Sequence record: DRR723986_647
Length of the DNA: 64,000 nucleotides
Reading direction: 5' to 3' (one strand)
Every line of letters starts with the position of its first letter. The first letter of the stretch is position 1. Made by a program: the position numbers and the translations under genes. The notes below the pieces were generated by a model. That model was not told the origin of the DNA. It searched no databases and saw nothing but the letters and a program-made list of their open reading frames with translations. Shown one piece after another: positions 35,524 to 64,000 of the stretch.

Positions 35524-35675
35524 GGAGCGTTACATCCGTTTACCGTTAACTATACACAAGAAAATTGGCAAAATCTTATTGATTGCTAGATATGGTCGCG
35601 ATCTAGCGCATGTAAAAGCCATAAGAGAAATTATTTTTTCTAAAACCGGAAATAGGCAAGCTTTCTTAGAATATA

Positions 35676-37625: not shown

Positions 37626-37759
37626 ATTACAAATCTAATTTTAGGGTTACAATTTAGCCAATCTAAAGGGCTGATAAGCCGTCTTGCTTTACAATTTTAT
37701 TTCGAGCGTATATTGCATGCCGCACAAGACCTGTAAATTCATTAGTGAAAAAGAAAACA

Positions 37760-38173: not shown

Positions 38174-38204
38174 TAGTATCTGGCCTTTGGCTTTTCTGCC
38201 TCGC

Positions 38205-39425: not shown

Positions 39426-39481
39426 AGAGACAGTATGCTAAACCGCGCTCAATAGCACGCGCACACTTGCAGAGATAGTTT

Positions 39482-40537: not shown

Positions 40538-40546
40538 CGTCATTCC

Positions 40547-43368: not shown

Positions 43369-43374
43369 GAAATG

Positions 43375-43890
43375 TCAGACATATTCTTTGGGGTGAACTA
43401 GGTCCACAAGCGCCACGCCGTTTTTTTCGGCGATATGCTCACACGCTTCGCGTACCGCGCCTTGCCCGCCCTCATTCACACATACCCAGTGTGCTATTTC
43501 TTTCACATCATTAACCGCATTTTGGGGCGCAATGGCATAGCCAGCCCGGCGCATAACATCCATGTCGATCCAGTCGTCGCCCATGAAAGCGCAATCAGCA
43601 AGCGTCAGGCCCAGCTCGTCACAGATATCATTGAGTGCTGAGGTTTTATCAGAACATTTCAATCGGCGACGGCGAATGCCAAGGTCGTCCAAACGGCGCT
43701 CAAGCGGCGCACTTTGACGGCCAGAAATGACCACAACTTCCACACCCGATTTACGTAAATATTTCATGCCAAGGCCGTCTTGGGCGTTAAACGCTTTCAA
43801 GTCTTCGCCGTTTGCTGTGTATAAAATGGTGCCGTCTGTCATCACACCGTCAACATCAAGGGCAAGCAATTTAATGGTCTTAGCGGTCAT
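43375..43890 (-). CDS. kdsC: Kdo 8-phosphate phosphatase
   Basis: LDVDGVMTDG, FNAQDGLG, MGDDWID, GGQGAVRE. Confidence 0.93.
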   Translation of the reverse strand: MTAKTIKLLALDVDGVMTDGTILYTANGEDLKAFNAQDGLGMKYLRKSGVEVVVISGRQSAPLERRLDDLGIRRRRLKCSDKTSALNDICDELGLTLADCAFMGDDWIDMDVMRRAGYAIAPQNAVNDVKEIAHWVCVNEGGQGAVREACEHIAEKNGVALVDLVHPKEYV

Positions 43891-43893
43891 GTT

Positions 43894-44736
43894 CTACTCC
43901 GTCACCAAGTGGTCGAAGCTTTTCACTAAATCATCAATAGATTTCACTTGCTCAAGATATGGCTTCAGCTGTTTTAATGGCAACGCACACGGCCCGTCGC
44001 ACAGCGCTTCATCGGGGTTCGGGTGTGCCTCCAGAAACAGGCCGGCCAAGCCAAGCGCCATACCCGACCGCGTAAGCGCTGCAGCTTGCGACCGTCTGCC
44101 ATCTGCGCTGTCACTGCGGCCGCCCGGTTGTTGCAAGGCGTGGGTGGCATCAAATATAACCGGCGCAAAGCGTTTCATAATATCCATGCCCAGCATATCA
44201 ACCACAAGGTTGTTATAGCCAAAGCTGGTGCCGCGTTCGCAGCACATCACGTCTTTTTTGCCGCTTTCTTCAAACTTCTTTAGAATATGCTTCATTTCCT
44301 GCGGCGCAAGAAACTGGGGCTTTTTCACATTGACCGCGGCCTTGGTTGCAGCCATGGCAGCAACCAGATCGGTCTGGCGGGCAAGAAAAGCTGGCAGCTG
44401 AATTACGTCTGCAACGTCTGCTACTGCGCTGGCCTGGTGGGGCTCATGCACATCGGTCAATATTGGCACATCCATATCGCGGCGGATGTCAGCCAGAATT
44501 TGCAAACCTGCGTCAAGGCCTGGCCCGCGAAATGAATGAATAGAAGACCGGTTCGCCTTGTCGAAACTGGCTTTAAAAACATAAGGTATGTCAAGTTCGG
44601 TGGTTACCTCTTTAAAAGTGCCGGCAATGTCGAACGCCATATCCCGACTTTCAAGCACATTCATGCCGCCAAACAACACGAAAGGCAGGTCGTTCGCCAC
44701 ATTAATTTTGTTCGCAATTAAAAGGCTGCGCCCCAT
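43894..44736 (-). CDS. kdsA: Kdo 8-phosphate synthase (metal-independent type, GMN)
   Basis: [45 protein letters not shown]. Confidence 0.96.
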
Positions 44737-44837
44737 AGCCGACCCTTTCAAGAAATATCCTTAAATATATACCAACTTGGCTACCGCGCTGACGCAAAAA
44801 GCGCAAGCATACAAATGTAGACTTTTTGCCATATCCC

Positions 44838-50220: not shown

Positions 50221-51969
50221 CTAAGAAACCGCAACTTCTGGGAGAAATGCTCTAGCAAGCGCGTAATACTGCTTTTCTGCTTCGCCGCCGTCAATGTCAG
50301 CTTCAAATATATTAGTATAATTATAGCTGATTTCAGGGGCAAATGCGATTTTGATTTTACCAGATGCTTCAGGCTTTATCGAACATTCTAGTTGAACCGG
50401 TCCAAAATCCACTTTTGCGATCGGTAAGGTCCCCAATTGCTTGTTGATTTTATTCTGCCCCCTTCTTTTCGCAGCCGTAGACTTTTCACCTTGTTTTAAA
50501 AATTTCCCGGTTTCAGAATCCACTTGCAAATCAAGCACGTTGCGCTCTTCAGAAAAGCTTGCTTTGGCTCGGCCTACTTTAGACTTTAAATCTTCAGGTA
50601 GGTCCTCAATGTTCATATTTTGCAACACCTCAAGTGACTTATCATCCACGTCAAATGAAGCGCCATAGACTTCATCTGGAATGCCAAACCACTCGAAGTC
50701 CGGAAATTTTGTTTTACCCGAACCAAAGGTAAAAGCCAGATAAAAAGGCCCTAAAGAAATTGATTTTTCAAAGCCTGACCTGATATCTCCGATGTCGCGC
50801 AAGCTATCAATACGTTGTTTGAGCACTTCTATTTCCCCGCTGACACCTCCACCAATTCTACCTCCTGCCCCTACTTCAAAATTAAAATAGATATACTCTT
50901 TGTTCGTATTTGGATCCAAAAGAAGGCCAATTTTCAACTGAGCACCAACGATAAAATAGAGCTCTATAGATACCGAAATTAATATAAGCGCTGTTGCTTT
51001 GCGCTTGTTATTTTTTTGCTGCTTCAGTCGCTCAGCGTAGGCTTTGGAGAATAGCTCATGATATTTCTTTTGTGGAAACAACGCATCCAATGCAGTCAAA
51101 GAGGAAAACATCTGCTTAACTTCAAATTGTGAGATTTTGCTGAGATTAAACTCTCTATCAGTCTGTTCGGTTCGGCTCTGTCTTTTCCGCAATGGCCTAA
51201 TAAGCGCAGCCACGAATTGCTTCTCGTATAAGTTTACGAAAGAATTAGGCAAACTATTGGTTTTAGTGAAAAGAAATTTATCAGCCGGCAACAATTTTAA
51301 AGGAGGCCTAAAAAAATATTGCTTGTCAGACTTAAACGTAATTTTACCACCCTTCGTTTCAACAAAGGGCCAATTTTTCAATATTCGGCGATAATTTCGA
51401 GCAACCTGTGAACTAAATTGAAGGGAAAACCCATTAACAAACTTATTATTGTATTTTTCATAAAACTTGGCTTTTGGCGATAAAGTAACCTTAAATTGAC
51501 CAGTACTATTAATTTCAATATTGACCACTTTCACATCGACCGACCATAGCTGAATTTCTTTGATAAGTTGTTGGTAAAGATCGGTTGGCACTGGCAAATC
51601 ATGAAGCGTTGGAGTGTTTTGTCGTTGATGCCGTTGATTGGTATCAACAATAATAGTCTCTTCATGATTGTAACTAAAAGCGCGAAGGTTCGAATGCTTA
51701 AACTTTGATAACGTCTTTAATTTCTGAAAGGTTAAACTGTTAGGTTTAACTATACCTTTTTCCTGTAATCCTGACTTCGTATTTAATAAACCAACATCAG
51801 ACTGAAAATCAAAAATGTGAGCTTTAAGCTCTTCCCCACCTAGCCCATCAACATTGTATGGATAATAGGCCCTTCCCGTAGCTTGATTTTTTAACATAAC
51901 TTGGATGAGAGCAATATCCGTACGCTTATTTACACCTCCAACACCAACACTCGCGCTAATTGTAGTCAT
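50221..51969 (-). CDS. AT-rich hypothetical protein with N-terminal peptidoglycan-binding-like domain
   Basis: ISASVG.GG.N...DI..IQ.ML...I.DFQ...G.V.P...T...L pattern; ATGA overlap with the holin stop; visibly AT-rich. Confidence 0.7.
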   Translation of the reverse strand: MTTISASVGVGGVNKRTDIALIQVMLKNQATGRAYYPYNVDGLGGEELKAHIFDFQSDVGLLNTKSGLQEKGIVKPNSLTFQKLKTLSKFKHSNLRAFSYNHEETIIVDTNQRHQRQNTPTLHDLPVPTDLYQQLIKEIQLWSVDVKVVNIEINSTGQFKVTLSPKAKFYEKYNNKFVNGFSLQFSSQVARNYRRILKNWPFVETKGGKITFKSDKQYFFRPPLKLLPADKFLFTKTNSLPNSFVNLYEKQFVAALIRPLRKRQSRTEQTDREFNLSKISQFEVKQMFSSLTALDALFPQKKYHELFSKAYAERLKQQKNNKRKATALILISVSIELYFIVGAQLKIGLLLDPNTNKEYIYFNFEVGAGGRIGGGVSGEIEVLKQRIDSLRDIGDIRSGFEKSISLGPFYLAFTFGSGKTKFPDFEWFGIPDEVYGASFDVDDKSLEVLQNMNIEDLPEDLKSKVGRAKASFSEERNVLDLQVDSETGKFLKQGEKSTAAKRRGQNKINKQLGTLPIAKVDFGPVQLECSIKPEASGKIKIAFAPEISYNYTNIFEADIDGGEAEKQYYALARAFLPEVAVS

Positions 51970-52406
51970 CTATTATCTACTTTTGATTGCCGACGTTCGC
52001 GCCACCCATCGCGGCCAACGCCTTTTAGTTTTTCAACGGTGCGAAGGCCGCCAAGGCCCAGCATAGCCATTAAAACCGTTATCAATGTTTCGGTACCGTT
52101 CAATGCAGGCGGCTCGGGCATGTCAGCGAAGAAGGCAAGCCGCAACCAATTCAGCAAATCATAACCAATGAAGTGCCAAGCCAAAGACAGGCCGCAAACC
52201 CAGCCCACAAAAGGCCGCCACCCGGCAACGAAAACCGAAGGATGTTGCGCCTCCGCCTTGTTAATTTCCAGTTGCGCGAGCCCGGCGCGCAGCATTTCCA
52301 TTTCCAGCTCGTGGTTGAACTTTTGGCGGGCGTTTTTGTCAGGTATCAGCTTATCAAGCGGGCTTTTGATCGCATCCAGAATGGTACCAATAATGGGTAT
52401 GCTCAC
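51966..52406 (-). CDS. Holin, 3TM GTA-release family
   Basis: LDKLIPD, INKAEAQHPSVFVAGWRPFVGWVCG, MLGLGGLRTVEK.KGV; GGAGG SD before GTG 52406. Confidence 0.9.
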   Translation of the reverse strand: MSIPIIGTILDAIKSPLDKLIPDKNARQKFNHELEMEMLRAGLAQLEINKAEAQHPSVFVAGWRPFVGWVCGLSLAWHFIGYDLLNWLRLAFFADMPEPPALNGTETLITVLMAMLGLGGLRTVEKLKGVGRDGWRERRQSKVDNR

Positions 52407-52501
52407 TGCACCCTCCAATTCAATATGGCGTCAAACAGCATGATCAACACGAATGCCGAGGCCGCGCTGAAGGCAAAGTCCTGCAGAAAGTCACGCAGCA
52501 T
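52403..52501 (-). CDS. 32-aa hydrophobic micropeptide between endolysin and holin (not in ORF track)
   Basis: MLRDFLQDFAFSAASAFVLIMLFDAILNWRVQ*; GGAGG 5 nt before ATG; its TGA overlaps the holin GTG (GTGA). Confidence 0.65.
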   Translation of the reverse strand: MLRDFLQDFAFSAASAFVLIMLFDAILNWRVQ

Positions 52502-53093
52502 GCCCGCCTCCTTTACCAACTTCGACATTGGCATCGGCACTGGCATGGATGCCCGCTTGGGTCGTACGGTCATTATCACTGCGTATAATGGTCAAGGTTT
52601 CGCGCCGGTTTTCGCCCAGCCGCTTGTGCGAAATATGCAACCACTCCGTCCGGCTGTCTTCGCGCTGACGCACTTCGTAAATAAGCTGATCGAAGGGAAT
52701 ATCGCTGGCCTTAATCGCCATGGCTGCATCAAAACACGGAACCCCGCGCACGATAATATCTACGGCCTCGCCTAGCAGATGCTGGCTGGTGGGTACGCCC
52801 CCAACCAATCGGTTCAGTGTACTGCACCGAAACCCGGACGTTACAATAACATATTTCCCAAACAGCGCGCGAACCGGCTCCAGCACATTGGTTGCCAGCG
52901 CACGCAAGTTGGCCACCTCTGCCTCTTCCCGCGGGATATTATACAGCTGGAACTTTTCTGCTGTTTGGCTTTTGGTAAATTCACTCAGGCGAAAATGCGG
53001 GCTCAGCATCATGCGCTCGTCAATTAATGACGGCACCGATTGCGGCAAGCTATAGCTGTGCGCACCATGGGGCTTTGCTGGCTTATAGGTCAT
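52491..53093 (-). CDS. Endolysin, peptidase M15A (Zn D-Ala-D-Ala peptidase fold)
   Basis: LSPHFRLSEF..S.TA, LEPVR, TSGFRC..LN..VGG..TSQH..GEAVD, FDQLIYE, WLHIS. Confidence 0.9.
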   Translation of the reverse strand: MTYKPAKPHGAHSYSLPQSVPSLIDERMMLSPHFRLSEFTKSQTAEKFQLYNIPREEAEVANLRALATNVLEPVRALFGKYVIVTSGFRCSTLNRLVGGVPTSQHLLGEAVDIIVRGVPCFDAAMAIKASDIPFDQLIYEVRQREDSRTEWLHISHKRLGENRRETLTIIRSDNDRTTQAGIHASADANVEVGKGGGHAA

Positions 53094-53341
53094 GCCAGCC
53101 ACCCCAATTTTTCGGCCAGCAAAAAGCCAAAAAGCGTGCCTATTTGCGCCAACACCAATAGCATCAGCTTAATAACGATGGACCACCGCTTGCTGCATTC
53201 AATCTCGTGGCGTTCAATTCGGTCAAAGGCCAAGGTGGCTTTCAGCAAGGCTGAATTGGCGTTTGTGCTACCATCCATGCCAAGGCTCACCGCATCCCCA
53301 AAACCGGCATCATATTCCTGCTTCGCACCAATAATGGTCAT
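53090..53341 (-). CDS. Small phage membrane protein (coiled coil + C-terminal TM), lysis cassette
   Basis: ATGA overlaps on both sides; RIERHEIEC..RW followed by a hydrophobic segment. Confidence 0.7.
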   Translation of the reverse strand: MTIIGAKQEYDAGFGDAVSLGMDGSTNANSALLKATLAFDRIERHEIECSKRWSIVIKLMLLVLAQIGTLFGFLLAEKLGWLA

Positions 53342-53706
53342 AGCTGCACCGTTAGGGCTAATGTGGCGACCCACCCCGCTAGCAACGCCGCAAGGCCTGC
53401 AAAAAAGCGCTTTTTCTCAAGCCCATGCCAGCGCCAAAAGGCAAAGGCCCCAAGGGGCGGCAGTGAGAAAATATCGTCCCACTCAACAGCGGCACGCTCT
53501 GCCCCCATACCCCACAACAGGGCGGTCAGCATTAAGGCCCAAATACCGCCCACAATCATGGATCCGCAGAAAACGACGGCCCCAAGGGGTGGCAGGCAGT
53601 AAACCACCAAAACCAAGCCCGCGCGTTTCAAAGCCGGGCGGGTATAAAAAAAGCGACCCAGGCTTGCGCTCAGGGCCGCTTTCGCGTTCACGATGTAATG
53701 TTTCAT
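53338..53706 (-). CDS. Phage multi-pass membrane protein
   Basis: 3-4 hydrophobic segments; AGGAG upstream; stop coupled to the next gene. Confidence 0.65.
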   Translation of the reverse strand: MKHYIVNAKAALSASLGRFFYTRPALKRAGLVLVVYCLPPLGAVVFCGSMIVGGIWALMLTALLWGMGAERAAVEWDDIFSLPPLGAFAFWRWHGLEKKRFFAGLAALLAGWVATLALTVQL

Positions 53707-53780
53707 AAAATGGGAATACTCCTGATTCAATCAGCTATTGGTCTGAAATTATTGTGCTGCCACTATTGCTAAAGCGCGCG

Positions 53781-56444
53781 CTACGGTGCTTGCAGGTCTC
53801 CGTTTTCATCCACATATTGCTGGATAACCGCCATAATGAAGGCTGTATCTGCATTTGCACCGGCTGACCCAGGTGGCCCCGCCGGTCCTGCCGGCCCCTG
53901 AGGGCCCGTTGGCCCCATCGGGCCTGCCGGGCCAGGCGCACCGTCGGCACCGTCTTGACCATCTTGGCCGTCAACACCGTTCTGTCCCGGCGCACCATCA
54001 TTGCCCTGTTCGCCGACAATGCGCTGAGCGATTGACCAACTGCCGCCAGAAAGCCGTTGGCGCATGTATAGGTCACCAGTTTGAAAGGTTGTGTGCCAAT
54101 TGTTTGATCCATCAATTGAATATTCAACTTCAAGGCCTGTGCCGCCCACACCTTGTGGTGTCGACCATGTTCCAATCAGAGTATTCTCGGCGCTTTTCAG
54201 GCCTTTGATCATCCATAGCTGAGTGCCGTCTTCGGCCGGTGGTCCGTCAGACCAGCCCACAGGTGTGTCACCGGTTGGTGTTGAGGGTTGGCTCGCCGAC
54301 CTTCTGAACATAATGTCGAAAAAGCCACCATTAGTACCCGCGGCACCGTCGGCACCAACACTGGCGAGCAATTCCCAGTAAGTTGGGTTTGTTAGTGCTG
54401 TGCCAGAAGCAGGAATTGCCGAAATAAACACATAGGACGACCCCTCTGACGTGACAATATCGCCGCGCATATACTCAGTACTGGCGCTGTACGCCCCTTT
54501 AAACTCCGTGCGGGTGGCGCCGTCTTCAATGGTGTCCAGTTTGCTTATGGTGGTCACCGTCAGGTCAACCGGGTCTGCAACTGCTTCAATGGAACGTTGC
54601 AGCAGCCGTGTTACATAACGCACCACAACCCTGTATTGGCGGTCGTCCACCAAGTCTGGAATGCGGCAAGCGGTTGCCTCATTATCTAGAATAAGCGTGC
54701 CTTGATAGTCATCGCTGGCGGCAAGCTCAGTATCGGCCTTGTCTCGCCATTTCACTTCAATGCGCTCAACCGGAATGTTCGAAGTTGGTGCGTCCCACGA
54801 CAGATAAATACCACTGATCACGCTGCCATCGGCTTTTGCGGTATGATATTCCGCAGCGGTTAAGTTGGTAACGGCGTTAGGGTCGGTCCAGACATCCGGG
54901 TTGTCGTCATTGGGCGAAAGCGGCTCTGGGGTCGGTGTTTCAGCACCGTAAACCGTGGCATCATAACGCTGTAAGTCCACCGATACATCAAGCGTGCTGC
55001 CAACGGTCACCGTTTCCACAATGAACCACGCTGATGCAGCACTGTAACCTTTGTCGGGGAACTCCAGCGCGATAACATCACCCGGCTCCAGCAACATGGC
55101 TTGCGGCGCTACCTTTAGCCCTCGGATGCGCTCGCCCACCCGGCTTTTACGCACCATAAATTCAGCATAGGCTTTGGCACGGTAAAAGTCTGTCACCGAT
55201 GGCAGGCTGTCATCCGCGTGAAGGTCCCGCCCGCCGTCTTCATCGAGGAATGCGGTATGAATAGACGAACCGCGCTCAGGCCAGGAAACGGTGTCGTCTT
55301 CATGGCTTTTGTTGGCATTGGGGAACGTAACCGTGAAACGATTGTACCGGTCAGACCGTCTGCCGTGCTCGATAGACCAACCACCCAGAATGGTGTCTGC
55401 GTCAAAGGTCATAACAGGTGCTGCCACTTCATCTTCAATCACCAGTCGATGCCGACCATTAGACCAAGACAGTGACCAACCAAACTCCTTAAGCAATAAG
55501 CGAATGTTATCAACCACGCCGGTTTTTGGGTCCAAAACCGCGTCAGCCTGATAGCGCCTTTGGCTTGTTCCCACCTGATCTGGCCGGTATTCGGGGTAAT
55601 AGTCATCGATATCAATATCAATGCGTTCGCCAGTGAAGGGGTTATACCACTGGGGTTGAACGGCACCAGTTTGATTGGTTTGCCGTGCAGGGATGGTAAC
55701 TGTTTCGTCGCACACATTCGCAGCAATAATAAAACTGTCTATATCCAACTCATCGGCAGGAGCACCAAACCCAAACGCCCCCATCATGTAATTCAAAACC
55801 GCCAGCGCGCGGTTGTTGCCGAAGCTCCACGTAGAAGGGTCATCAAAGCTTTGCCCGCCTGATGCGCCGTAGGCCGGGTCTTGGCGCGGGTCATACAGGC
55901 GAAGGCCGCGCACATCGGCCTTTAACTGTGGCTCGCCCCTAAACTGCGGATGTTTGGTTGAATTGAAAAACCGAGTCCAGGAGTAGGCAACACCTGCCCC
56001 CTTGTGTGCGCTGCTCCATCCAAGGGCCGCAACTGTTAGGCCCGTCATGGCGCTTTGGCTGTCAGCACCCAACAATGTTGCCGCCCGAAAATAGGGTCGT
56101 TTGGATTGAAAACGCTTGTGGCCGTCGGCGTCGCCGTCAATCCAGAAGCGTTCAACCGCATCAATTGGCCCCTGCCCCCAAACATCTATGCGGTGCAACC
56201 AGTTGTTATGGTCCAGCGGGTCGTCCCGATTATCAATCCCCCTGCTTACAACTGTGGCGGAGCCGTTACCGATGGCAGACGCTTTCCTATTGGAAACCCG
56301 CTTCAAAACCGTAATGGCTTCTGCGCGCCGACGGCCATATATAATTGGCAGGCCAGCGGCTGTCGCTGATTTAGAAAGCTCAATTTTCTGGTTCGGCGCA
56401 CCGCTGAGGCCAAGGAATTTGCCAACAAAATTAAGTAAACCCAT
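53781..56444 (-). CDS. Tail tip / host-specificity protein (gpJ-like) with FN3-like region and C-terminal collagen repeats
   Basis: LPIIYGRRR, VRGLRLYDPR, LEPGDVI, LSWDAP; 18 Gly-X-Y triplets. Confidence 0.85.
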   Translation of the reverse strand: MGLLNFVGKFLGLSGAPNQKIELSKSATAAGLPIIYGRRRAEAITVLKRVSNRKASAIGNGSATVVSRGIDNRDDPLDHNNWLHRIDVWGQGPIDAVERFWIDGDADGHKRFQSKRPYFRAATLLGADSQSAMTGLTVAALGWSSAHKGAGVAYSWTRFFNSTKHPQFRGEPQLKADVRGLRLYDPRQDPAYGASGGQSFDDPSTWSFGNNRALAVLNYMMGAFGFGAPADELDIDSFIIAANVCDETVTIPARQTNQTGAVQPQWYNPFTGERIDIDIDDYYPEYRPDQVGTSQRRYQADAVLDPKTGVVDNIRLLLKEFGWSLSWSNGRHRLVIEDEVAAPVMTFDADTILGGWSIEHGRRSDRYNRFTVTFPNANKSHEDDTVSWPERGSSIHTAFLDEDGGRDLHADDSLPSVTDFYRAKAYAEFMVRKSRVGERIRGLKVAPQAMLLEPGDVIALEFPDKGYSAASAWFIVETVTVGSTLDVSVDLQRYDATVYGAETPTPEPLSPNDDNPDVWTDPNAVTNLTAAEYHTAKADGSVISGIYLSWDAPTSNIPVERIEVKWRDKADTELAASDDYQGTLILDNEATACRIPDLVDDRQYRVVVRYVTRLLQRSIEAVADPVDLTVTTISKLDTIEDGATRTEFKGAYSASTEYMRGDIVTSEGSSYVFISAIPASGTALTNPTYWELLASVGADGAAGTNGGFFDIMFRRSASQPSTPTGDTPVGWSDGPPAEDGTQLWMIKGLKSAENTLIGTWSTPQGVGGTGLEVEYSIDGSNNWHTTFQTGDLYMRQRLSGGSWSIAQRIVGEQGNDGAPGQNGVDGQDGQDGADGAPGPAGPMGPTGPQGPAGPAGPPGSAGANADTAFIMAVIQQYVDENGDLQAP
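53853..54014 (-). repeat. Collagen-like (Gly-X-Y)18 repeat
   Basis: GEQ GND GAP GQN GVD GQD GQD GAD GAP GPA GPM GPT GPQ GPA GPA GPP GSA GAN. Confidence 0.95.
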
Positions 56445-57016
56445 TAGGCGTCTGCTCCCCACCCGATGGTGTTTTTCTCTTCGTGAGCAAATTCAAAGAA
56501 TTTGTCACCGGGGTAATTATCATTTTGGTTATGGTCGCTGGTGGCGCGCCCGGCGGTCAGATTTGGTTTGGCCCACGGGCTGGTTATTTTAACAGCGATG
56601 GTCGAGCGCGACCCGCTGTCTTGTTCGGTCCAGCTATCAAAAGCACCTTTATAGAGACTAATGGCTTGGCCATCGATTACTGCTCCGCCCGCATCAAGGA
56701 ACACCAGCCGCACTTCACAGGCATCGCCCACACGGTCAACCGGCGAGCCGTCTGTGTAGCTGTGGCGCATGGCATAGGCCATGCCCGCGTCAACGTTAGA
56801 GAAAGTAACCGTGTAGCTTTGCAGTTTAATCCGCCGCTCTCGCACGACGGAGCGCACGCCGAGCAGGTCGCCTTGGCTTCGGTATGTGTTGCCACCAAAA
56901 TTGATATCAAGCGAATGATTGGTGAAAAACAAATCATCACCCAATTGCAGCAACCAGGCATAGCTGAGGGTATCGGCACTAAGGGCCGCTTGAATTCCGT
57001 TTGAAACTGTCAGCAT
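56444..57016 (-). CDS. Baseplate hub / minor tail protein (DUF2163-like)
   Basis: FFTNH..DI.FGG.TY...G.LL and C-terminal YPGDKFFEF...IGWG; position before the tip gene. Confidence 0.75.
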   Translation of the reverse strand: MLTVSNGIQAALSADTLSYAWLLQLGDDLFFTNHSLDINFGGNTYRSQGDLLGVRSVVRERRIKLQSYTVTFSNVDAGMAYAMRHSYTDGSPVDRVGDACEVRLVFLDAGGAVIDGQAISLYKGAFDSWTEQDSGSRSTIAVKITSPWAKPNLTAGRATSDHNQNDNYPGDKFFEFAHEEKNTIGWGADA

Positions 57017-57017
57017 G

Positions 57018-57518
57018 TTAAAGCCTTTCAATCAGGTCGACACCAAGTCGGATCAAACCGTCTCTACCAATGGTGACTTCCTGCACGTCATTTTGCAGGG
57101 ATGCCCGCATGAAAACCTGATCGGTGAACATGGTTGCGCCGGTTAAACGCGGCGACGGGAACAACGTAGTAGTCGGGTCTGTGCCTGCAATCATGTGCAG
57201 CTTGGTATCATCGTCCACATTAGCAAAGTTGGCCGCCGTGTTGCCGGTGCTGACAGCCAAGCCAGTGATCTCCACTTTAAAAATGCTGTTGCGCCCTTGC
57301 CTTGATTGCAAAAAGGCAATCAGGTCTGCGGCATCGCTGCGTTTCATTGGGTTATAGCCAAGGGTCACCTGAAAAAGCTGGCCGCCATATGCCCGGCTTA
57401 AAATGCGACCACTTTCGGCTTGGCTGGTTTTAGTGCGCTGCTGCGACCGCACAAGCATTTCGGCTGGGGCCGGCAGCATTGGTAAGGCATCTAGCGATGA
57501 AAACATGGAGCTGGGCAT
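57018..57518 (-). CDS. Distal tail protein-like
   Basis: S.SGR...R..GGQ.F..TL.Y.PM...A..L.AFL....G....F; position after the TMP. Confidence 0.7.
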   Translation of the reverse strand: MPSSMFSSLDALPMLPAPAEMLVRSQQRTKTSQAESGRILSRAYGGQLFQVTLGYNPMKRSDAADLIAFLQSRQGRNSIFKVEITGLAVSTGNTAANFANVDDDTKLHMIAGTDPTTTLFPSPRLTGATMFTDQVFMRASLQNDVQEVTIGRDGLIRLGVDLIERL

Positions 57519-57580
57519 CAAGAAAGCTTTCCTGTTGGCAAGGTTTGCAGGGCATGAAGGTGTGCGGATTTGCGAAGCAG

Positions 57581-58522
57581 TTAGGCGCTGAAAGGCGAGG
57601 CCTGCGCATAGTCTGCATAAATTTCGCGGATCATGGTCTCAATGGCACCACGATTAGCAGATACTGCGTCTGGGCTGGCGTCACCGCCGATGGTTAAATT
57701 GATGGTGGGGTTAAAACTGTTGGTGCTAGTTGACCGGTTCAAATTGGAAATTGATCCGCCAGTACTGACGTCACTGGCACCGCCGCCACTGCCGACAATT
57801 CTACCCAAAAAGTCAGACAGATCTTGGTTCAGGCGTTTGCCAACAACCCGCTCACCTTTTTCAAGTAAATAGGTGCCTGAAGACGGCACTTTATCGAGGC
57901 CGTCATGCGCCTGACCCTTAATGGTGGAAATTTGCGTGGCAGCCTGTGCCGCCAGAGCGGCAGCAAGGGGTATGGCGGCAGGAAAGCCGTGCTCTTTAAA
58001 GGTTTTGGTTATGCCAACAGCGGCGTTAACCACCGCTGCACCGATGGCATAGGCTTTTCTGACCTTGGCTAACTTTTTTGACCCTGCAATAGCATTAGCT
58101 AGTTTAGACGCCCAAAGTTTTTTATCGCTTTCTGCCTGTTCTTTATCCGCCTCGGTTTGGGACTTTGACACATCGCTTGAAAGCGCTTTCACTTTTTCCG
58201 CATTATCAGCGTCATTAGCGCTGTTTTCGCCTGCTTTTTCTTTCTTTGCCCCATCAAACATGCCGCTTGCGACAAATTGATCAGTTAAAAAACCAGAGAA
58301 AGTTGTCGCTAATTTTGGCTCAGGCATTGGACCCGGACCACTTGCAACAAGATTAGACTGACCGCCGGTCACTGTGCCACCGCCCCCTGTACTTCGGTCA
58401 ATGTTTTGACCGATGGATGACAAGGTTTTGCCAGCCTTTTTGACGCCATCCACAATCTGGTTCAGCGGCCTCAAAATTTTGGAAGGATCTATTTTTGCGG
58501 CAATGTCGCTCTGAAAAACCAT
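57581..58522 (-). CDS. Short tail tape-measure protein (313 aa)
   Basis: Ala-rich helix and GQAHDGLD.VP..GTYLLEKGERVV TMP C-terminal motif; follows the TAC pair. Confidence 0.8.
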   Translation of the reverse strand: MVFQSDIAAKIDPSKILRPLNQIVDGVKKAGKTLSSIGQNIDRSTGGGGTVTGGQSNLVASGPGPMPEPKLATTFSGFLTDQFVASGMFDGAKKEKAGENSANDADNAEKVKALSSDVSKSQTEADKEQAESDKKLWASKLANAIAGSKKLAKVRKAYAIGAAVVNAAVGITKTFKEHGFPAAIPLAAALAAQAATQISTIKGQAHDGLDKVPSSGTYLLEKGERVVGKRLNQDLSDFLGRIVGSGGGASDVSTGGSISNLNRSTSTNSFNPTINLTIGGDASPDAVSANRGAIETMIREIYADYAQASPFSA

Positions 58523-58770
58523 CAACCATACCTTTCTTGCAATTCGTTCAACCGCGCCCGCGTCATGGGGGGCGGTGCGGGTTTAATGCCCTGCTCCCGT
58601 TGCCGACCGGCAATTGCCAACAACAGTTCTGGCAGCGTGGCCCGGTAAATTGTGCGGGGTGGCCACCCAAGTGTGGTGCCCGCATTCATCACATCGTGCC
58701 AATTTATGGTGTTTGGGTTTTGGTCGGCGTGGGCGTGCGGTGCCGCCGTGTCGCGGCTTAAAGCTTTCCC
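58522..58770 (-). CDS. Tail assembly chaperone C-terminal extension (gpGT-like, -1 frame; not in ORF track)
   Basis: Open -1 frame GKALSRD...INWHDVMNAGTTLGWPPRTIYRATLPELLLAIAG...MTRARLNELQERYG*; its TGA overlaps the TMP ATG. Confidence 0.8.
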   Translation of the reverse strand, partial: GKALSRDTAAPHAHADQNPNTINWHDVMNAGTTLGWPPRTIYRATLPELLLAIAGRQREQGIKPAPPPMTRARLNELQERYG

Positions 58771-59108
58771 GGCTTTTTTTGCTCCGATCCGGCGCGCTCA
58801 GAAGGCGGCGACAAAGTGAGCTCAAGGCACCTGGAAATTGCCGTTGCTGCCTCAGACATACCCGCCTTCACAATGGTCTCACCGGCGCGTTTTACCGCCG
58901 CCTCGTCCCCGAAATCCCCGCCGGTCATTGCCAAAAACAACACGGCCATGTCCCGCAGACGAAACTGGGGGAACCGATCCGTTAAAAACGGCACCAACCC
59001 CATACCAAAATGGTCCTCAAGGTCCATCATGGTGCCAATTGTAAGCCGCAAGCGCCGCTTGCGCCGCCCTACTTGCAAGCTTGTTTCGCCGCTTATCGCT
59101 CTAGCCAT
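58758..59108 (-). CDS. Tail assembly chaperone (GTA g10 / gpG-like)
   Basis: MARAISGE..L......LRLTIG.MMDLED.FG; ends at slippery site PGKL*. Confidence 0.8.
   Translation of the reverse strand: MARAISGETSLQVGRRKRRLRLTIGTMMDLEDHFGMGLVPFLTDRFPQFRLRDMAVLFLAMTGGDFGDEAAVKRAGETIVKAGMSEAATAISRCLELTLSPPSERAGSEQKKPGKL
58764..58779 (-). other. Tandem -1 ribosomal frameshift heptamers A AAA AAG and G GGA AAG
   Basis: Zero frame CAA AAA AAG CCG GGA AAG CTT TAA; both heptamers are in X XXY YYZ phase. Confidence 0.8.
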
Positions 59109-59121
59109 AGGTCAGCCCCAA

Positions 59122-59529
59122 TTAAACTGGTGTTGCCGTGATAGGCCCGGCAGAATCCAAATTGATATCGTAGGTTATGGCGTCTTCAGTGCCGCCGCTG
59201 ACACCCAGCGAAGATACAATAAACGGCCCCGTATAATTCATGAAGCCCGGCATCACGACCCGGCAGTTCAAGTGAGTTCCGGCCAGCACAGCGCTGTGCA
59301 CCGTGGCATAGGCGTCGCCGCTTACAAATATACCGTTACCAGACGTGTTAATCGACACTAAGCCACCACCATCAAGCATCTCTTTGAAACCGGCAGAGTC
59401 TTTCGTTGTAGCGTCAACAGCATTGCCATTGATTGTGAAACTATTGCTGGTAAACCCACCAACCGTTTCATAACCCCCTGCGCCGTCATCAACTTGTAAC
59501 AACAGCTCTTTTCCTTTTTGTGCAGACAT
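59122..59529 (-). CDS. Major tail tube protein (TP901-1 / RcGTA g9 family)
   Basis: MSAQKGKELLL, VDATTKDS.G..E.L.GGG, PGF..Y.GPF.V..L, Y.I.L.SAG.IT; AGGAGAGG SD. Confidence 0.9.
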   Translation of the reverse strand: MSAQKGKELLLQVDDGAGGYETVGGFTSNSFTINGNAVDATTKDSAGFKEMLDGGGLVSINTSGNGIFVSGDAYATVHSAVLAGTHLNCRVVMPGFMNYTGPFIVSSLGVSGGTEDAITYDINLDSAGPITATPV

Positions 59530-59689
59530 GCACCTCTCCTTTTGATTAAATTATTTGTGGTTAAATTACGTCATTAAAGTCAGCCGTATTAGGGCCACCA
59601 GATTTGGTGGTTTTTCCATTAAGCTTCATAGATTCAATGAGTTGAGCTTAGGTTTATCACCTTGAAGTACGGACACTTGTTCGCATTCG

Positions 59690-59705
59690 TTAGCAAATGG
59701 TTAAC
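59690..59705. promoter_or_regulatory. CtrA-like binding site
   Basis: TTAG-CAAATGG-TTAAC (one mismatch to TTAA-N7-TTAAC); the minus strand contains the TTAACCAT half-site. Confidence 0.5.
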
Positions 59706-59819
59706 TTTATTCTGCTTTCATACTGATCAACATTGTTATTGAGACGCGAAGATTTTTCTCGATTTATGAGCCTCGGTTGATTATGAAATTATTTCGATTG
59801 GGGTCTGTAGGAACAGACT

Positions 59820-60107
59820 ATGAATAAAGCAGACTATGCACTGGGACTATTACTTGCGCTCGCCATCGCACCAGTAGCGATATTCCCCGGTGCCCACTGG
59901 TCCGTTATTACCTGCCTAATTGCGGCGGCGGCAATTTTCATTCTTTTCGTCATTCCGGCCCCCAAAGAGCGCTGTAAAAGATGCGGCCATTACTTTAACC
60001 GCACAATATACAGCCGGTTCCTGAAGCGGGAAAAGGTCAAGAAATGCACTGATTGTCAGGCCGTGCCGCAAGCGAACAGCGCTGGACAAGACAGCCTGCC
60101 GGTTTAG
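59820..60107 (+). CDS. Small 2-TM protein with CxxC...CxxC zinc ribbon, antisense insert (moron-like)
   Basis: AGGA SD, two hydrophobic segments, CKRC and CTDC; stop overlaps the DUF3168 stop. Confidence 0.75.
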   Translation: MNKADYALGLLLALAIAPVAIFPGAHWSVITCLIAAAAIFILFVIPAPKERCKRCGHYFNRTIYSRFLKREKVKKCTDCQAVPQANSAGQDSLPV

Positions 60108-60520
60108 CTAACCACCTCATAAATTAATGCTGAGTATGTCACGCGGCCTCGATACAGGGCGCCTGCTTCGGTAAACTGGCGCACGACATTGGCACTGACA
60201 AGCCGAATTTCCACCAAGTCAAACCCATCCATATCCGGCCGGCTTTGGTGTAAAATTGTGTTCACATCTGACATCAATTCTTTTACTTCCATTTGGCTGG
60301 GTTCGCCTGACCAAACAGCAATGTCAAAGTTTACCCGCGTGCCGGACCTGTCTTTAAGGTCCGCTGGTTGAAGCGTGGTATCACCTAGAGAAATATAGGG
60401 GTATTGTGCATTTTGCGGTGGCTGGTCGTATATGCCTGTTAGCTTAAGCCCAAGCGTTGTGTCTGCGCTCAGCAGGGCGAAAACTGCTTCTTGCAGCTTA
60501 TGGCCAATGAATGCTGTCAT
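60104..60520 (-). CDS. Tail terminator protein (DUF3168)
   Basis: LQEAVFALL.AD..L, IYDQPP..A.YPYI.LG, .VWS, YRG. Confidence 0.88.
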   Translation of the reverse strand: MTAFIGHKLQEAVFALLSADTTLGLKLTGIYDQPPQNAQYPYISLGDTTLQPADLKDRSGTRVNFDIAVWSGEPSQMEVKELMSDVNTILHQSRPDMDGFDLVEIRLVSANVVRQFTEAGALYRGRVTYSALIYEVVS

Positions 60521-60556
60521 AAAAATGCCCTCAGTAGGGTAAGAGTGATGATGTGG

Positions 60557-60880
60557 TTAAATAAGAGTGGCCTGAAACTCAATTTTAGGCGTAAGCAGGC
60601 CCTTTTTCCGAGAGGACTGCACTTTGTAGCGATCTGGTCCAAACTCAATGGTGCGGGTGTTTTCATATTCCGGCTGGAACCATGTTTCAAAAGTAACAGA
60701 CCCGCGCAGGAATTGTTTACCGCTGCGTTCAAGTTTGCCTGACGACAGCTCGCCTATACTGGCCCAAACTTCGGCAATGATCGGCGAGGTTTGTGTCATG
60801 CGGCCACCTGCGCCCTGAGTGAAGGCTTCTGCCATAAGGGTAATGCGGTGGCGCATGGAGCCAGCATTTGCCGCCGTCAT
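60557..60880 (-). CDS. Head closure / head-tail joining protein
   Basis: AGSMRHRITL, GAGG, VWASI. Confidence 0.8.
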   Translation of the reverse strand: MTAANAGSMRHRITLMAEAFTQGAGGRMTQTSPIIAEVWASIGELSSGKLERSGKQFLRGSVTFETWFQPEYENTRTIEFGPDRYKVQSSRKKGLLTPKIEFQATLI

Positions 60881-61524
60881 AGCCGAACCCTTCGAAACGA
60901 ATGCAGCAAACCCGCAGCACCGCTTTCCTGAAGCAAATGGACTGAGGGCATGGCATCATCCCCGCGGCTAACATAAAGTTTAGCAGCAACCTTAATAATT
61001 GCTTGCTGAATTAGCTCTGGCACTGTGTTCCAGTCTGGCCCAAAGCCGACGGTTAAAGACATTTTTATCGCATCATAGGGGCGAGAAAGTTGTGGCCAAC
61101 TAGCGCCAGAAGCAAGCCGCACAGTGGAATCCAGGCCCGGTTGCAATGCATAGTTCTCTGCGGCCCATTCGGTTTCCTCGCCTGTTGCATCAAATAGTGT
61201 AATGGCATTTATGAGGCTAACAGGGCGCACGGGAAGCATAAGGAAAGCTGCTGTATGAAGGCCCGGCACTAAGGTATCCATCTTGTCTGCAACGGACAGA
61301 CCCGCCGAACCCTGCCCCGAAAGGTCTGGCCAGGCGTCTGCATAAACATCAATGTTTCTGCCTATCAGATATAAACCTGTTGCCGCTTCAACCACAGCCC
61401 TGGCCGCAGCGGTAAAGCCGGAAATTGCAGCGTCTTCAAGGTCACTGTCAATTCGTAAATAGGCTTTGACCTCTTCCAGTAAAACAGGCTCATGCGCTGG
61501 CTCAGATGTTTGGACAATTCTCAT
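60877..61524 (-). CDS. Head-tail connector (gp6/gp15-like adaptor)
   Basis: P..EPV.LEEVKAYLRID...ED, AAR..VE..TG, GFG.....VP..IQQAI....A.LY..R. Confidence 0.88.
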   Translation of the reverse strand: MRIVQTSEPAHEPVLLEEVKAYLRIDSDLEDAAISGFTAAARAVVEAATGLYLIGRNIDVYADAWPDLSGQGSAGLSVADKMDTLVPGLHTAAFLMLPVRPVSLINAITLFDATGEETEWAAENYALQPGLDSTVRLASGASWPQLSRPYDAIKMSLTVGFGPDWNTVPELIQQAIIKVAAKLYVSRGDDAMPSVHLLQESGAAGLLHSFRRVRL

Positions 61525-61526
61525 AC

Positions 61527-61808
61527 TTATCGCTCCGCAATTCGAATGATCAGGCTTCGGTCTACTGTGCGAGCACCATCGGTTTGGATACGGCACGTAA
61601 GCCGGTAGCGCTCTCCGGGTGTCCCACCAGCGACAAACACACTGCGAGTTGCCTCGGCTTCTGTTTCAACACCAAGGGTCGGCGCAGAGATTCCAGCAGG
61701 GTCAATTGACCAAGTTGTTGACGTGATAGATTCGCCTGCTGCCAGCCAACTGCTCCAGTCAAGGCTATAGTCCACGCTGCTTGCGGGGTCTTTGAGGTAA
61801 ATGGTCAT
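61527..61808 (-). CDS. Virion structural protein (KDP..DY..DW..WL family; fibre-adaptor-like)
   Basis: KDPASSVDYSLDWSSWL..GESI, GGTPG..Y..TCRI.T..R..DRS; AAGGAG SD. Confidence 0.75.
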   Translation of the reverse strand: MTIYLKDPASSVDYSLDWSSWLAAGESITSTTWSIDPAGISAPTLGVETEAEATRSVFVAGGTPGERYRLTCRIQTDGARTVDRSLIIRIAER

Positions 61809-61879
61809 ACCATCTCCTTGATTATACTGTGTTTTTTTGAGCTAAAGGGCTTAAATTTACCGCGCAAAAGCAGCCCATA

Positions 61880-62335
61880 TTACGGCTGCGAGAACGACAG
61901 CCAACCATTGGGGCCATGACTGAAAGCAAGCGCCCCTCGCATCACCTCGCGCTGACCATTGCCTTGAGGGGCAAGGTCACAGAATGCAATCAAATTTTTC
62001 GTATCAGCCTTTGCACCAGGCAACCCGGCTGCAAACAACAAATAGCGAAAGGGTGGTAATGAAATTGGGTCACCGAACAAAATAGAATCAGACACAAGCC
62101 GAACGGCATCGCCAGCTACGCTCACAGACACCCCTGTTAGCGGCTTTGGATTATAATCAAGCCCCACTATTTCCGCAGCATTGACATCTGAAAATACTGT
62201 ATCATTCGCGGCATCAGAGGTGAAAGCCGGGCTCATAAGATGGGCGGATATGCCCTGATGGATATAGCCAGGCAACACTCCGCTAACGACATTTTTGAGT
62301 GTCTGCTTGTAAGCAATCATCTCGCCGATCAACAT
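61880..62335 (-). CDS. Hypothetical phage structural protein
   Basis: 151 aa, beta-rich, GGAG SD, located within the structural operon. Confidence 0.65.
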   Translation of the reverse strand: MLIGEMIAYKQTLKNVVSGVLPGYIHQGISAHLMSPAFTSDAANDTVFSDVNAAEIVGLDYNPKPLTGVSVSVAGDAVRLVSDSILFGDPISLPPFRYLLFAAGLPGAKADTKNLIAFCDLAPQGNGQREVMRGALAFSHGPNGWLSFSQP

Positions 62336-62385
62336 GGCACAGCTCCATTTTTCAAAAAATAATAAGGCAAAAAAGCAAAAGTACT

Positions 62386-62628
62386 TTAAACGCCGGTTAG
62401 CTTTCGACGGCCTGACCTGGACCTCACAGCTCGAGACCTGACTTGCGGAGCTACACCCTGTTTTCGCCCGGCCACAAAAGCAGGCGTATCGTCAGCAAAC
62501 ATGGTCAGGGCAGACGAAGAAACTGTGATAATGCCAAAATTAAGCGAGAGCATTTCACTGCGTATTCTGATTGCAGCCATTGGTGCGGCCGCAATAGTTG
62601 ATCCTAAAAGGGTCATGAGAATATCCAC
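62386..62628 (-). CDS. Hypothetical phage protein
   Basis: 80-aa co-oriented ORF filling the gap; basic C-terminus. Confidence 0.5.
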   Translation of the reverse strand: MDILMTLLGSTIAAAPMAAIRIRSEMLSLNFGIITVSSSALTMFADDTPAFVAGRKQGVAPQVRSRAVRSRSGRRKLTGV

Positions 62629-62686
62629 ATATTGCTGTAGTATTGGAATGCGAGACAGACAGATAGCCTATCTCACAGTTTTTCCG

Positions 62687-62890
62687 CTATTGGGCCAGTG
62701 ATTTGACATCATCGTTTGCTACCGCTGCACTTTTTGGTGCCTCTTCAGAAATAATAGCGGAAAGACAATTGAAAATATCCACATAAACCGGCATTTCTGC
62801 GCCTTGCATTTGTGTGCGTTGCAGAAACTGCAAGATGGCTTTTGCTTGCTCAACTGAGATCATGTTTGGTTGATTTTGGGTGTTTGTCAT
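62687..62890 (-). CDS. Hypothetical phage protein (possible fibre chaperone)
   Basis: AAGGAG SD; 67-aa helical protein directly after the fibre-like gene. Confidence 0.65.
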   Translation of the reverse strand: MTNTQNQPNMISVEQAKAILQFLQRTQMQGAEMPVYVDIFNCLSAIISEEAPKSAAVANDDVKSLAQ

Positions 62891-63063
62891 TGGGTAAACT
62901 CCTTCTATAGGCAGTTGGGTCGCCGCCTCACCATGAGCACGACATTTGAATATTAGGACACAATTAGATGGCCCTAATCAGGTTACAGATTGTGGAAAGC
63001 TTAAAGCGTACGGCGCCGATTTACGACGAACCACACCGACTAAAAAACTGCAGCTTGGTTGTT

Positions 63064-63999
63064 TTATCCGTTGTTGGAACGTGACAGCTCAACCCACAAC
63101 CCGCTATCATGGATAAGCACAAGCATGTCGGTGGACAGGTCCATTGTGAAATCACCGTTCAAGGCAATCGTAGCGCTATCCTTAACAACAACAGTATTGC
63201 TATCCGTTGCTGCTCTGAGCACTAAAATATCTCCGTTGTTGCCGCCATTTATGGTGGTTAAGTCGTCCGTGCTGCCGCTTTCAACGGCGATACGGTGAAA
63301 GCTTTTAGAAACAGTTACAGCCCCACTAGATATAGTGAGCGTTTCAACGCCTCCTAAAGATAACTTACCTTCAAGGTTTAATGACTTGTCTTCCTTGATC
63401 TCCGCAGCAAGTGCAAGACCCTCTGAGACATTCCGCACCCAAAACTGCATATCTGCATCACTGGTGGAAGAGCCGTTAAGTACGTTGATACGGGCCATTA
63501 CGCTATCGGCATTGTTAGCAAATTCTACGTTCCCTAGACCACTTCCAGCGGAACCGGCGTTGTTACGCCTTATAGTTATCTTGGCTGCGTTGCTGGCCGC
63601 AGATACCTGTAGGTCAGATATGCGGATGGCGGATGTATTGTTAAAGTCCCAATAGTCCGCACTGTGGTCCCAATGCAACCTATCGGTGGAGCCTGTTCTT
63701 ATTAATATATCATTAGCTTGAATGCTGTGCGTACTTCCGTAGAGGATTATATTTGCCCCGGTGGTGTCAGTACCTGAGTAGATATCAAGAGCGCTAGAGT
63801 TACTATCCCCGTGTATGGCTGGGACTGTTGTGGTGCCACTGAACTCTACATTTCCGCTGTTATCGACACCAATAGCGGTCGTTGATCCTATCTTTAGGTT
63901 AAATAATCCATCGCCAGCGCTCTCGCTATTTGATGTGAACTCGATAGCCGCTGCAAGAGAGCTATTTTGATAATACCCTATTTTGAATAGATCGGGGTC
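63064..63999 (-). CDS. Fibre/spike-like virion protein, C-terminal part (5' end outside window)
   Basis: Frame is open from the window edge (DPDLFKIGYYQN...) through the tracked 204 aa; beta-rich with C-terminal TDDL.TI.GG..GD.LVL...W.ELSRS. Confidence 0.75.
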   Translation of the reverse strand, partial: DPDLFKIGYYQNSSLAAAIEFTSNSESAGDGLFNLKIGSTTAIGVDNSGNVEFSGTTTVPAIHGDSNSSALDIYSGTDTTGANIILYGSTHSIQANDILIRTGSTDRLHWDHSADYWDFNNTSAIRISDLQVSAASNAAKITIRRNNAGSAGSGLGNVEFANNADSVMARINVLNGSSTSDADMQFWVRNVSEGLALAAEIKEDKSLNLEGKLSLGGVETLTISSGAVTVSKSFHRIAVESGSTDDLTTINGGNNGDILVLRAATDSNTVVVKDSATIALNGDFTMDLSTDMLVLIHDSGLWVELSRSNNG

Positions 64000-64000
64000 T

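Follow-up and report, generated by a model that had tools for sequence, protein, structure and literature searches.

Do the phage-like genes at positions 50221-64000 of sequence record DRR723986_647, at one end of a 64,000-nucleotide stretch of DNA (the window), belong to an ordinary prophage, to a tailocin-like particle or to a gene transfer agent (GTA)? A first-pass annotation of the sequence had leaned towards a domesticated GTA or tailocin-like particle, possibly linked to the neighbouring capsule locus. We think it reasonably probable that these genes are the distal part of a phage-derived, vertically inherited, recombinase-free cluster of the Kordiimonadaceae, which would act as a GTA and not as a self-propagating prophage. 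The cluster is most likely a hybrid. Its head, neck and tube appear to be of the type known from the GTA of Rhodobacter capsulatus (RcGTA), and its tape measure, baseplate and lysis genes, the last placed in the cluster itself, appear to be of another phage type.

The window ends inside a fibre gene, so the tests that had been proposed for this locus were run on relatives, where the head end could be examined. The tip protein has 52 homologues, and every named one is from Kordiimonas, a marine alphaproteobacterium. Alignment of 25 of these homologues gave 19 loci in Kordiimonas/Kordiimonadaceae genomes (here, G numbers denote genomes and L numbers loci). An IMG/VR contig classed as viral (L001) matched with the tip protein alone, and the carriers of the tip gene are thus 19 genome loci and one viral contig. 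The order from fibre to holin is collinear with the window in all 12 of these 20 loci that are long enough, at 26-98% protein identity, and both flanks are conserved. Upstream, the relatives carry genes for a small terminase-like protein, a large terminase (Terminase_6N/6C), a portal, an S78 protease and an HK97 capsid, and five genomes have a single HK97 capsid gene, placed immediately upstream of the locus. On the complete chromosome of G005 the order is small terminase-like gene, T4-type large terminase, portal, S78 protease, a variable stretch of ~3 kb, a gene of 106 amino acids (aa) and capsid, and PAS, AraC and TetR genes precede the head genes. The whole cluster measures 24-31 kb in relatives. 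Since the window holds connector and closure genes, and capsid, portal, protease and terminase genes lie directly upstream in relatives, the tailocin-like part of the earlier proposal does not fit: head and packaging genes are present. The capsid occurs in 33 of 45 Kordiimonadaceae genomes, at 59-96% identity and as a single gene in each. Tip alignments in the same 45 genomes reach E <1e-150 in 22 and are weak in 5, and in two of the capsid-less genomes the tip or the large terminase is still matched. The cluster is also present in the cultured type strains Kordiimonas aquimaris JCM 16665 (L010) and K. aestuarii JCM 17742 (L021).

Between protease and capsid lies an island that varies from several kb to roughly 10 kb, with open reading frames (ORFs) on both strands that match no Pfam family and with a content that differs between genomes. 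It spans 13988-16733 of L023 (~3 kb), 13404-17893 of L026 (~4.5 kb) and C1:985314-998141 of G090 (~13 kb), the last span also including portal and protease. G090 and G033 have not lost terminase and portal, as had been considered: their terminase lies at least 13 kb upstream of the capsid.

How long has the element been at its site, and can it leave? No tyrosine recombinase (PF00589) was found on its contig region in nine genomes (G001-G005, G096, G018, G130, G101), and no serine recombinase (PF00239) near it in five; tyrosine recombinases are present elsewhere in the genomes checked. With regard to the marks of a prophage, the element has no recombinase and the window no tRNA, it sits at one site in one copy per genome, and att repeats were not searched directly. 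Downstream of the element a PPTase gene follows in six genomes: G001, G002, G004, G101 and, with lower identity, G096 and G018, the two most divergent. KdsA comes next after it in G001, G002, G101, G096 and G018 (the G004 locus shows the PPTase only), and KdsC, KdsB and KpsC/S also lie downstream in G001, G002, G096 and G018, as far as the loci reach. The first gene downstream in G130 and G003 is an RTX gene, where the locus ends; the G005/G081 group has a different downstream flank. Two genes just upstream of the element are conserved in G001-G004, G096 and G018.

The element also follows its hosts in descent. Mantel correlations with RpoB were 0.62 for the capsid (n=25), 0.84 for the portal (n=19) and 0.81 for the large terminase (n=16), and in each case none of 2000 permutations reached the observed value. 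The RpoB tree had 9 of 22 splits in common with the capsid tree, 12 of 16 with the portal tree and 8 of 13 with the large terminase tree; under shuffled labels the mean was 0.3 and the maximum 3. Ratios of nonsynonymous to synonymous substitution rates (dN/dS) ranged from 0.02 to 0.21 over head, tail and lysis genes, at dS of 0.3-1.4. Between G005 and G081 the ratio was 0.019 for the capsid, 0.053 for the tip, 0.063 for the tube, 0.069 for the holin, 0.087 for the portal and 0.14 for the terminase, compared with 0.075 for a flanking host gene. Where the element has been lost, traces remain. In G136, G075 and G104 (L088, L089 and L090) the structural genes are gone and the upstream regulator genes are fused to the last 71-73 aa of the holin: regulator, DUF1376, DUF6362-like and PAS genes are followed by the C-terminal half of the holin and then by an RTX gene, and a remnant of the small terminase persists between upstream genes and holin in L089 and L090. 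The cluster of G071 breaks off within the portal gene. The joining of upstream genes to a truncated holin indicates internal deletion of a resident element, not its excision.

These comparisons portray the element as long-resident, selected and non-mobile, unlike a temperate phage. The absence of recombinases, the conserved flanks, the gene trees that follow RpoB and the low dN/dS among relatives all favour a domesticated GTA-like element over an ordinary prophage, as the first-pass annotation had supposed when it named integrase, synteny and dN/dS as the points to check. The same data bear on two other explanations. A mobile temperate phage family could reintegrate at the same kds/kps-side site by an unrecognised mechanism, and we consider this highly improbable. 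It would account for the regulator and DUF1376 protein upstream, the complete sets of head, tail and lysis genes, the viral classification of L001 and the related baseplate and lysis module in an integrase-bearing prophage described below. It is opposed by the lack of tyrosine and serine recombinases near the element, its single copy at one site, the agreement of its trees with RpoB, a tape measure less than half as long as that of the related true prophage, and the form of the capsid-less genomes, which show internal deletions with a truncated holin instead of empty attachment sites. A cryptic prophage remnant that makes no particles, its genes persisting by chance or for unrelated uses, is highly improbable in our judgement. 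The deletions and breakage in the clade of G136, G075 and G104 and in G071, and a capsid fragment in G064, are what such decay would leave; the dN/dS values across head, tail and lysis genes, and full-length frames in the window and in 12 collinear loci at RpoB distances of up to about 0.3, speak against it.

What, then, is the particle made of? Families were assigned to the window ORFs by Pfam, NCBIfam and PHROG searches. All particle genes of 50221-64000 lie on the minus strand, with a 95-aa ORF as the sole listed exception, so the operon runs from 64000 towards 50221. In the order of transcription its genes are as follows.

63064-64000 (frame 63064-63999), minus strand: C-terminal 311 aa of a long fibre/tailspike-like protein, which continues beyond the window; no Pfam or PHROG family.
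62687-62890, minus strand: conserved small protein of 67 aa, 42-76% identical and at the same position in 12 loci; no family.
61880-62335, minus strand: conserved 151-aa protein between fibre and adaptor, 29-56% identical in 12 loci; no family.
61527-61808, minus strand: Gp77-like fibre-tail adaptor (PF23148, E 1e-24).
60877-61596, minus strand: head-tail connector of RcGTA g6 type (PF05135, E 1e-6; TIGR02215, E 1.8e-31).
60557-60880, minus strand: head completion/closure protein in the g7 position (PF05521, E 1.8e-5, 25.7 bits against a cut-off of 25).
60104-60520, minus strand: tail completion protein, gp17/DUF3168, in the g8 position (PF11367, E 6e-23).
59820-60107, plus strand: 95-aa membrane protein inside the operon, with hydrophobic segments and a C-terminal CxxC...CxxC motif.
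59122-59529, minus strand: tail tube of the TP901-1 family, g9 type (PF06199, E 3e-31; TIGR02126).
58758-59108, minus strand: tail assembly chaperone of g10 type (PF11836, 'GTA-gp10', E 8e-9).
58522-58692, minus strand: second tail assembly chaperone, of g10.1 type (PF09550, E 3.5e-7).
57581-58525, minus strand: tape measure of 314 aa (PHROG only: phrog_13674, E 5e-21).
57018-57521, minus strand: distal tail protein without DUF2460 (phrog_1302, E 2e-7).
56444-57031, minus strand: baseplate hub (phrog_2048, E 2e-19; PF09931 below cut-off, E 0.005).
53781-56462, minus strand: tail tip/host-specificity protein of 893 aa (PF13550 and collagen repeats above cut-off).
53338-53730, minus strand: 130-aa multi-pass membrane protein, 43-67% identical in 16 loci, its hydrophobic segments read from the sequence; no family.
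53090-53374, minus strand: 94-aa protein with a single C-terminal hydrophobic segment, 51-78% identical in 15 loci; no family.
52491-53102, minus strand: endolysin, peptidase M15 (Peptidase_M15_3; PF08291, E 8e-18).
51966-52418, minus strand: holin, GTA_holin_3TM (PF11351, E 7.7e-17).
50221-51969, minus strand: 582-aa post-holin protein, overlapping the holin stop by ATGA, GC content 0.39; no family.

The matches bear out the gene order and coordinates given by the first-pass annotation, including its 3TM GTA-family holin. Its description of intact, coupled genes agrees with full-length frames and tight packing (8 of 19 gene junctions overlap), and the distance of 172 bp between the cluster and the RTX gene of a capsule locus on the same strand is exact. 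As that annotation had noted, no tRNA is present in the window and no integrase domain among the window ORFs scanned, which contain no sheath gene either. Apart from the 582-aa gene the cluster has a GC content of 0.52.

The distinction between head and baseplate is clearest against canonical RcGTA-type clusters. DUF2460, the hallmark of g12, is absent from all 45 family genomes (a Caulobacter positive control matched) and, in a sample of 121 genomes from the same GTDB order, occurs in 65. The capsids cross-checked in these other genomes are 50-58% identical to the Kordiimonas capsid and lie 6-10 kb upstream of DUF2460. Our comparison set is 15 such clusters. Identities of the element's proteins to these clusters, and the number of clusters matched, were:

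small terminase-like protein, 31-36%, 3 of 15 clusters
large terminase, 45-57%, 15 of 15
portal, 38-48%, 15 of 15
protease, 37-52%, 15 of 15
capsid, 47-59%, 15 of 15
Gp77 adaptor, 24-48%, 8 of 15, where it lies between capsid and connector
connector, 24-30%, 8 of 15
DUF3168 protein, 25-35%, 8 of 15
tube, 31-39% (the window tube included), 13 of 15

The element's tape measure, distal tail, hub, tip and lysis genes were unmatched by tblastn in the 15 clusters, and no flanking synteny with them was found. The window tube is also 33% identical to a protein of Rhodobacter phage RcapNL annotated as 'GTA orfg9-like'. The nearest capsids of cultured phages are 45-50% identical, and the portals of these phages only 24%, with a terminase of a different family. 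In the capsid tree the Kordiimonadaceae form a clade beside the canonical clusters, with three phages outside. By these measures the module from head to tube can be classed as of the RcGTA kind. The likeness extends to the collinear head, the g6 connector, closure protein, DUF3168 protein, TP901-1 tube, the g10 and g10.1 chaperones, the short tape measure, the lack of a recombinase nearby, the fixed chromosomal site, descent with the host, and a holin from the family that takes its name from the GTA holin. The match to RcGTA g6-g15 that had been proposed stands for the g6-g10.1 families; for g12-g15 the likeness is positional only. Unlike that of RcGTA, the baseplate of the element is not the g12-g15 set of DUF2460, DUF2163/BR0599, NlpC/P60 and GTA_TIM/megatron proteins, and it lacks DUF2460, GTA_TIM and megatron: the window contains neither of the first two, and its GTA_megatron match scores 17.6 bits against a cut-off of 800. 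The element differs further in its ~1000-aa fibre gene after the capsid, its variable island between protease and capsid, its size of 24-31 kb, and the XRE-type regulator, DUF1376 and PAS proteins upstream.

An 18-kb database entry, MW091529.1 ('Bacteriophage sp. 103231, partial genome'; L114), has the canonical RcGTA-type layout, in which the tape measure has 181 aa and is accompanied by a peptidase and by a 'glycoside hydrolase' of 1272 aa; two efflux genes come next. The entry, though filed among phages, may stem from the GTA region of a bacterium.

The tape measure of the element is short, as the first-pass annotation was right to point out (it gave 313 aa). It aligns only to the C-terminal parts of long tape measure profiles, and the best-overlapping ORFs in relatives have 286 aa (L001) and 292 aa (G005). 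Its homologue in an integrase-bearing prophage of G100 with the same baseplate type has 726 aa. Two complete phages with RcGTA-like modules, Caudoviricetes sp. MW202777 and Desulfofustis phage LS06-2018-MD02, resemble the element about as closely as the canonical clusters do, in terminase (52%), portal (38-42%), capsid (44-47%), tube (34-35%) and gene order; they differ in their genomes of 45-46 kb, with DNA polymerase, helicases and a tape measure of ~699 aa, whereas the element lacks these and has a tape measure of 286-314 aa. A shortened tape measure, and with it a predicted short tail, is a trait common to the element and GTAs.

The G100 prophage (contig C16, L107/L108, 120000-158000) comes from the same order, outside the family, and shares the distal gene order with the element. 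Identities are 41% for Gp77, 38% for the C-terminus of the tape measure, 42% for the distal tail protein, 41.5% for the hub, 36% for the tip and 43.5% for the M15 endolysin. It differs in having a tyrosine integrase at C16:110215, ~19 kb upstream of the portal, a large terminase of another family and a capsid only 31% identical. A canonical RcGTA-type cluster is also present in G100, on contig C14. The prophage may show a possible form of the donor of the distal module. In the tip protein of the element, the N-terminal 640 aa are conserved and the C-terminus is variable; its fn3 and CBM_5_12 matches are below cut-off.

How is the cluster controlled? Four genes precede the head genes in G003 and have orthologues in G001, G002, G004, G096 and G018: one for a divergent regulator of 245 aa, and the others for a DUF1376 protein (378 aa), a DUF6362-like protein and a PAS_5 protein. 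The HTH_3 and Peptidase_S24 matches of the 245-aa regulator both fall just below their cut-offs. Searched against the PDB as a profile of nine orthologues, it gave XRE matches that were all weak (best E 9e-4), and a single regulator sequence matched no solved structure there. One orthologue has a cysteine in place of the serine of the GDDSL motif, and no conserved lysine was found to pair with it; self-cleavage of the SOS type is a guess. The XRE-type regulator and the DUF1376 protein are found upstream in six genomes with the cluster and in three with remnants only, and the genes of this early module are not in the canonical RcGTA clusters, within the stretches compared. The upstream regulator genes may control the cluster. 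The operon had been called self-contained, which is true in part only: the conserved XRE-type regulator, DUF1376 protein and PAS protein lie upstream in most relatives.

Such a regulator recalls the PBSX-type defective prophages of Bacillus, which have a fixed site, an Xre-type repressor and their own terminase, head, tail and lysis genes, and do not propagate. PBSX differs in its contractile tail, unrelated proteins and Gram-positive host. The element could likewise be a PBSX-like defective prophage kept for killing or altruistic lysis: induced through the XRE-type regulator, it would kill or lyse non-kin, and DNA packaging would be incidental. The conserved regulator divergent from the early genes, the lysis genes in the cluster, the fixed site without an integrase, the persistence of the regulator module where structural genes are deleted, and a polymorphic protein encoded after the holin are all consistent with a killing device. 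The head, terminase and tube genes are of RcGTA type and not of myovirus type, and no sheath gene occurs among the ORFs scanned. We regard this explanation as unlikely, though it is the strongest competitor of the GTA reading, and sequence does not separate killing from transfer. The two readings overlap, as PBSX also packages host DNA.

The holin is the best conserved gene of the cluster, at 70-98% identity across loci, and it is preceded by the M15 endolysin; the 130-aa and 94-aa proteins are candidate lysis accessories. RcGTA is encoded at five or more loci, with the lysis genes rcc00555/556 outside its structural cluster (Hynes et al. 2016, PMC5026251), unlike the in-cluster lysis genes of the element. 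The 582-aa gene (50221-51969) was considered as a recognised lysis gene and rejected, as it belongs to no lysis family. In eight related loci a gene of ~490 aa follows the holin, and the 582-aa protein aligns to this family over its first 45 aa only (hhalign 80.6%, E 1.3e-5). The post-holin gene looks polymorphic, with a constant N-terminus and exchangeable bodies. A match of the N-terminus to PG_binding_1 (atlas score 0.85) suggests a peptidoglycan-binding-like part, as a lead only. Near the holin and the 582-aa gene, terminators and promoters were no commoner than in shuffled sequence.

At the other end of the operon, the fibre and lysis genes are indeed together in one operon, as had been proposed; the fibre genes (61527-64000), however, are promoter-proximal, between capsid and connector, and not at the tail end. 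The fibre fragment in the window is the last third only, as homologues in eight relatives have 891-1176 aa and stand directly after the capsid gene. A search of genome contigs with the fragment found no relative, an exact 51-base word taken from the end of the window had no match in metagenome contigs, and nine full-length proteins in this position in relatives match no Pfam family. Only the last ~100 residues of the fragment fold confidently (residues 213-310, pLDDT >90). In this predicted structure the C-terminal domain resembles the C-terminus of a tailspike depolymerase (Z 10.2, root-mean-square deviation 2.8, 90 aligned residues) and a capsid spike (Z 7.2). The fibre is a candidate receptor-binding protein. 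The 151-aa protein between fibre and adaptor also occurs in distant members of the Kordiimonadaceae, and the true start of the connector is probably an internal methionine, Met 25. The 95-aa ORF on the opposite strand occupies a 574-bp gap between the DUF3168 and tube genes; it is 33-70% identical in eight related loci, at the same place and in the same orientation, and could encode a regulator or an immunity-type protein.

Does the neighbouring capsule locus matter? The first-pass annotation had seen that the cluster adjoins kds/kps capsule genes, and this is real and conserved in much of the family. The cluster and the PPTase/kds genes are separated in the window by a gene at 45816-50048 (minus strand), whose 1410-aa product has 24 stretches that match the RTX nonapeptide. 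An RTX gene is present at this site in G130, G101, G003, G136, G075 and G104 and absent in G001 and G002. Positions 34618-44751 encode KdsA, KdsC, KdsB, a KpsC/S-type Capsule_synth protein, a sulfotransferase and a PAPS reductase. The kds/kps genes with the sulfotransferase and the PAPS reductase suggest a sulfated, Kdo-linked capsule. RcGTA uses the capsule as a receptor and its head-spike genes adjoin capsule genes (Hynes et al. 2016, PMC5026251), and in R. capsulatus, too, attachment genes are thus beside capsule genes. For the element, the only hint of the capsule as a receptor is the predicted likeness of the fibre C-terminus to those of tailspike depolymerases. It is conceivable that the neighbourhood is functional and no accident of history: the hybrid GTA would have been kept beside kps since the origin of the family, with its two variable receptor-binding proteins, fibre and tip, tracking capsule type and aiming transfer or killing at cells of the same capsule. 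We find this extension of the GTA reading doubtful.

If the element is a GTA, the following sequence of events can be envisaged. A subpopulation of cells would express the operon and build small HK97-type heads, which the T4-type headful terminase would fill mainly with host DNA. The filled heads would be joined to non-contractile tails of ~45-50 nm, and the cell would be lysed by the M15 endolysin and the 3TM holin. Once released, the particles would use the long fibre and the variable tip protein to bind related cells. The element would thus work as a gene transfer agent, a 'viriform'.

Several points weigh against this reading or limit it. Particle production, packaging of host DNA and transfer are inferred from gene content. 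The head genes and left boundary of the window's own cluster lie beyond the sequence read, and the nearest genomes examined share 74-80% tip identity with it. The element is not universal: 11 of the 45 family genomes have no capsid match and one more (G064) has a capsid fragment only, and those capsid-less genomes that could be placed fall at no fewer than 5 separate positions on the RpoB tree. The trees are FastTree trees. A phage-like early module (the XRE-type regulator with its faint S24-like part, DUF1376 and PAS_5) stands before the heads in most relatives. Finally, an unrooted tree of terminase, portal and capsid places the family elements, the canonical clusters and two true phages in three groups, so that a domestication shared with RcGTA is not established.

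In GTA surveys an element counts as RcGTA-like by its full g1-g15 set, and such elements are assigned to five orders (Shakya et al. 2017, PMC5721377). The string 'Kordii' is absent from the main text of that survey and of Kogay et al. 2024 (PMC10883770), whose supplements may list such genomes. Full-text searches likewise turned up, among the papers listed, none that ties Kordiimonas, its family or its order to a GTA or to a prophage of its own, with the same proviso on survey supplements. The nearest published parallel to a GTA/prophage intermediate comes from Xu et al. 2024 (PMC11409702), who describe prophages that carry 12-14 RcGTA homologues.

The presence of the cluster in cultured type strains makes particle production, DNA content and capsule dependence directly testable. 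If our reading holds, the Kordiimonadaceae would show that a GTA-type head can last for the lifetime of a family in the company of a different baseplate, its own lysis cassette and a phage-style regulator. Such an element would blur the line between GTA and defective prophage and may serve as an intermediate form in the debate on the origin of GTAs from prophages.

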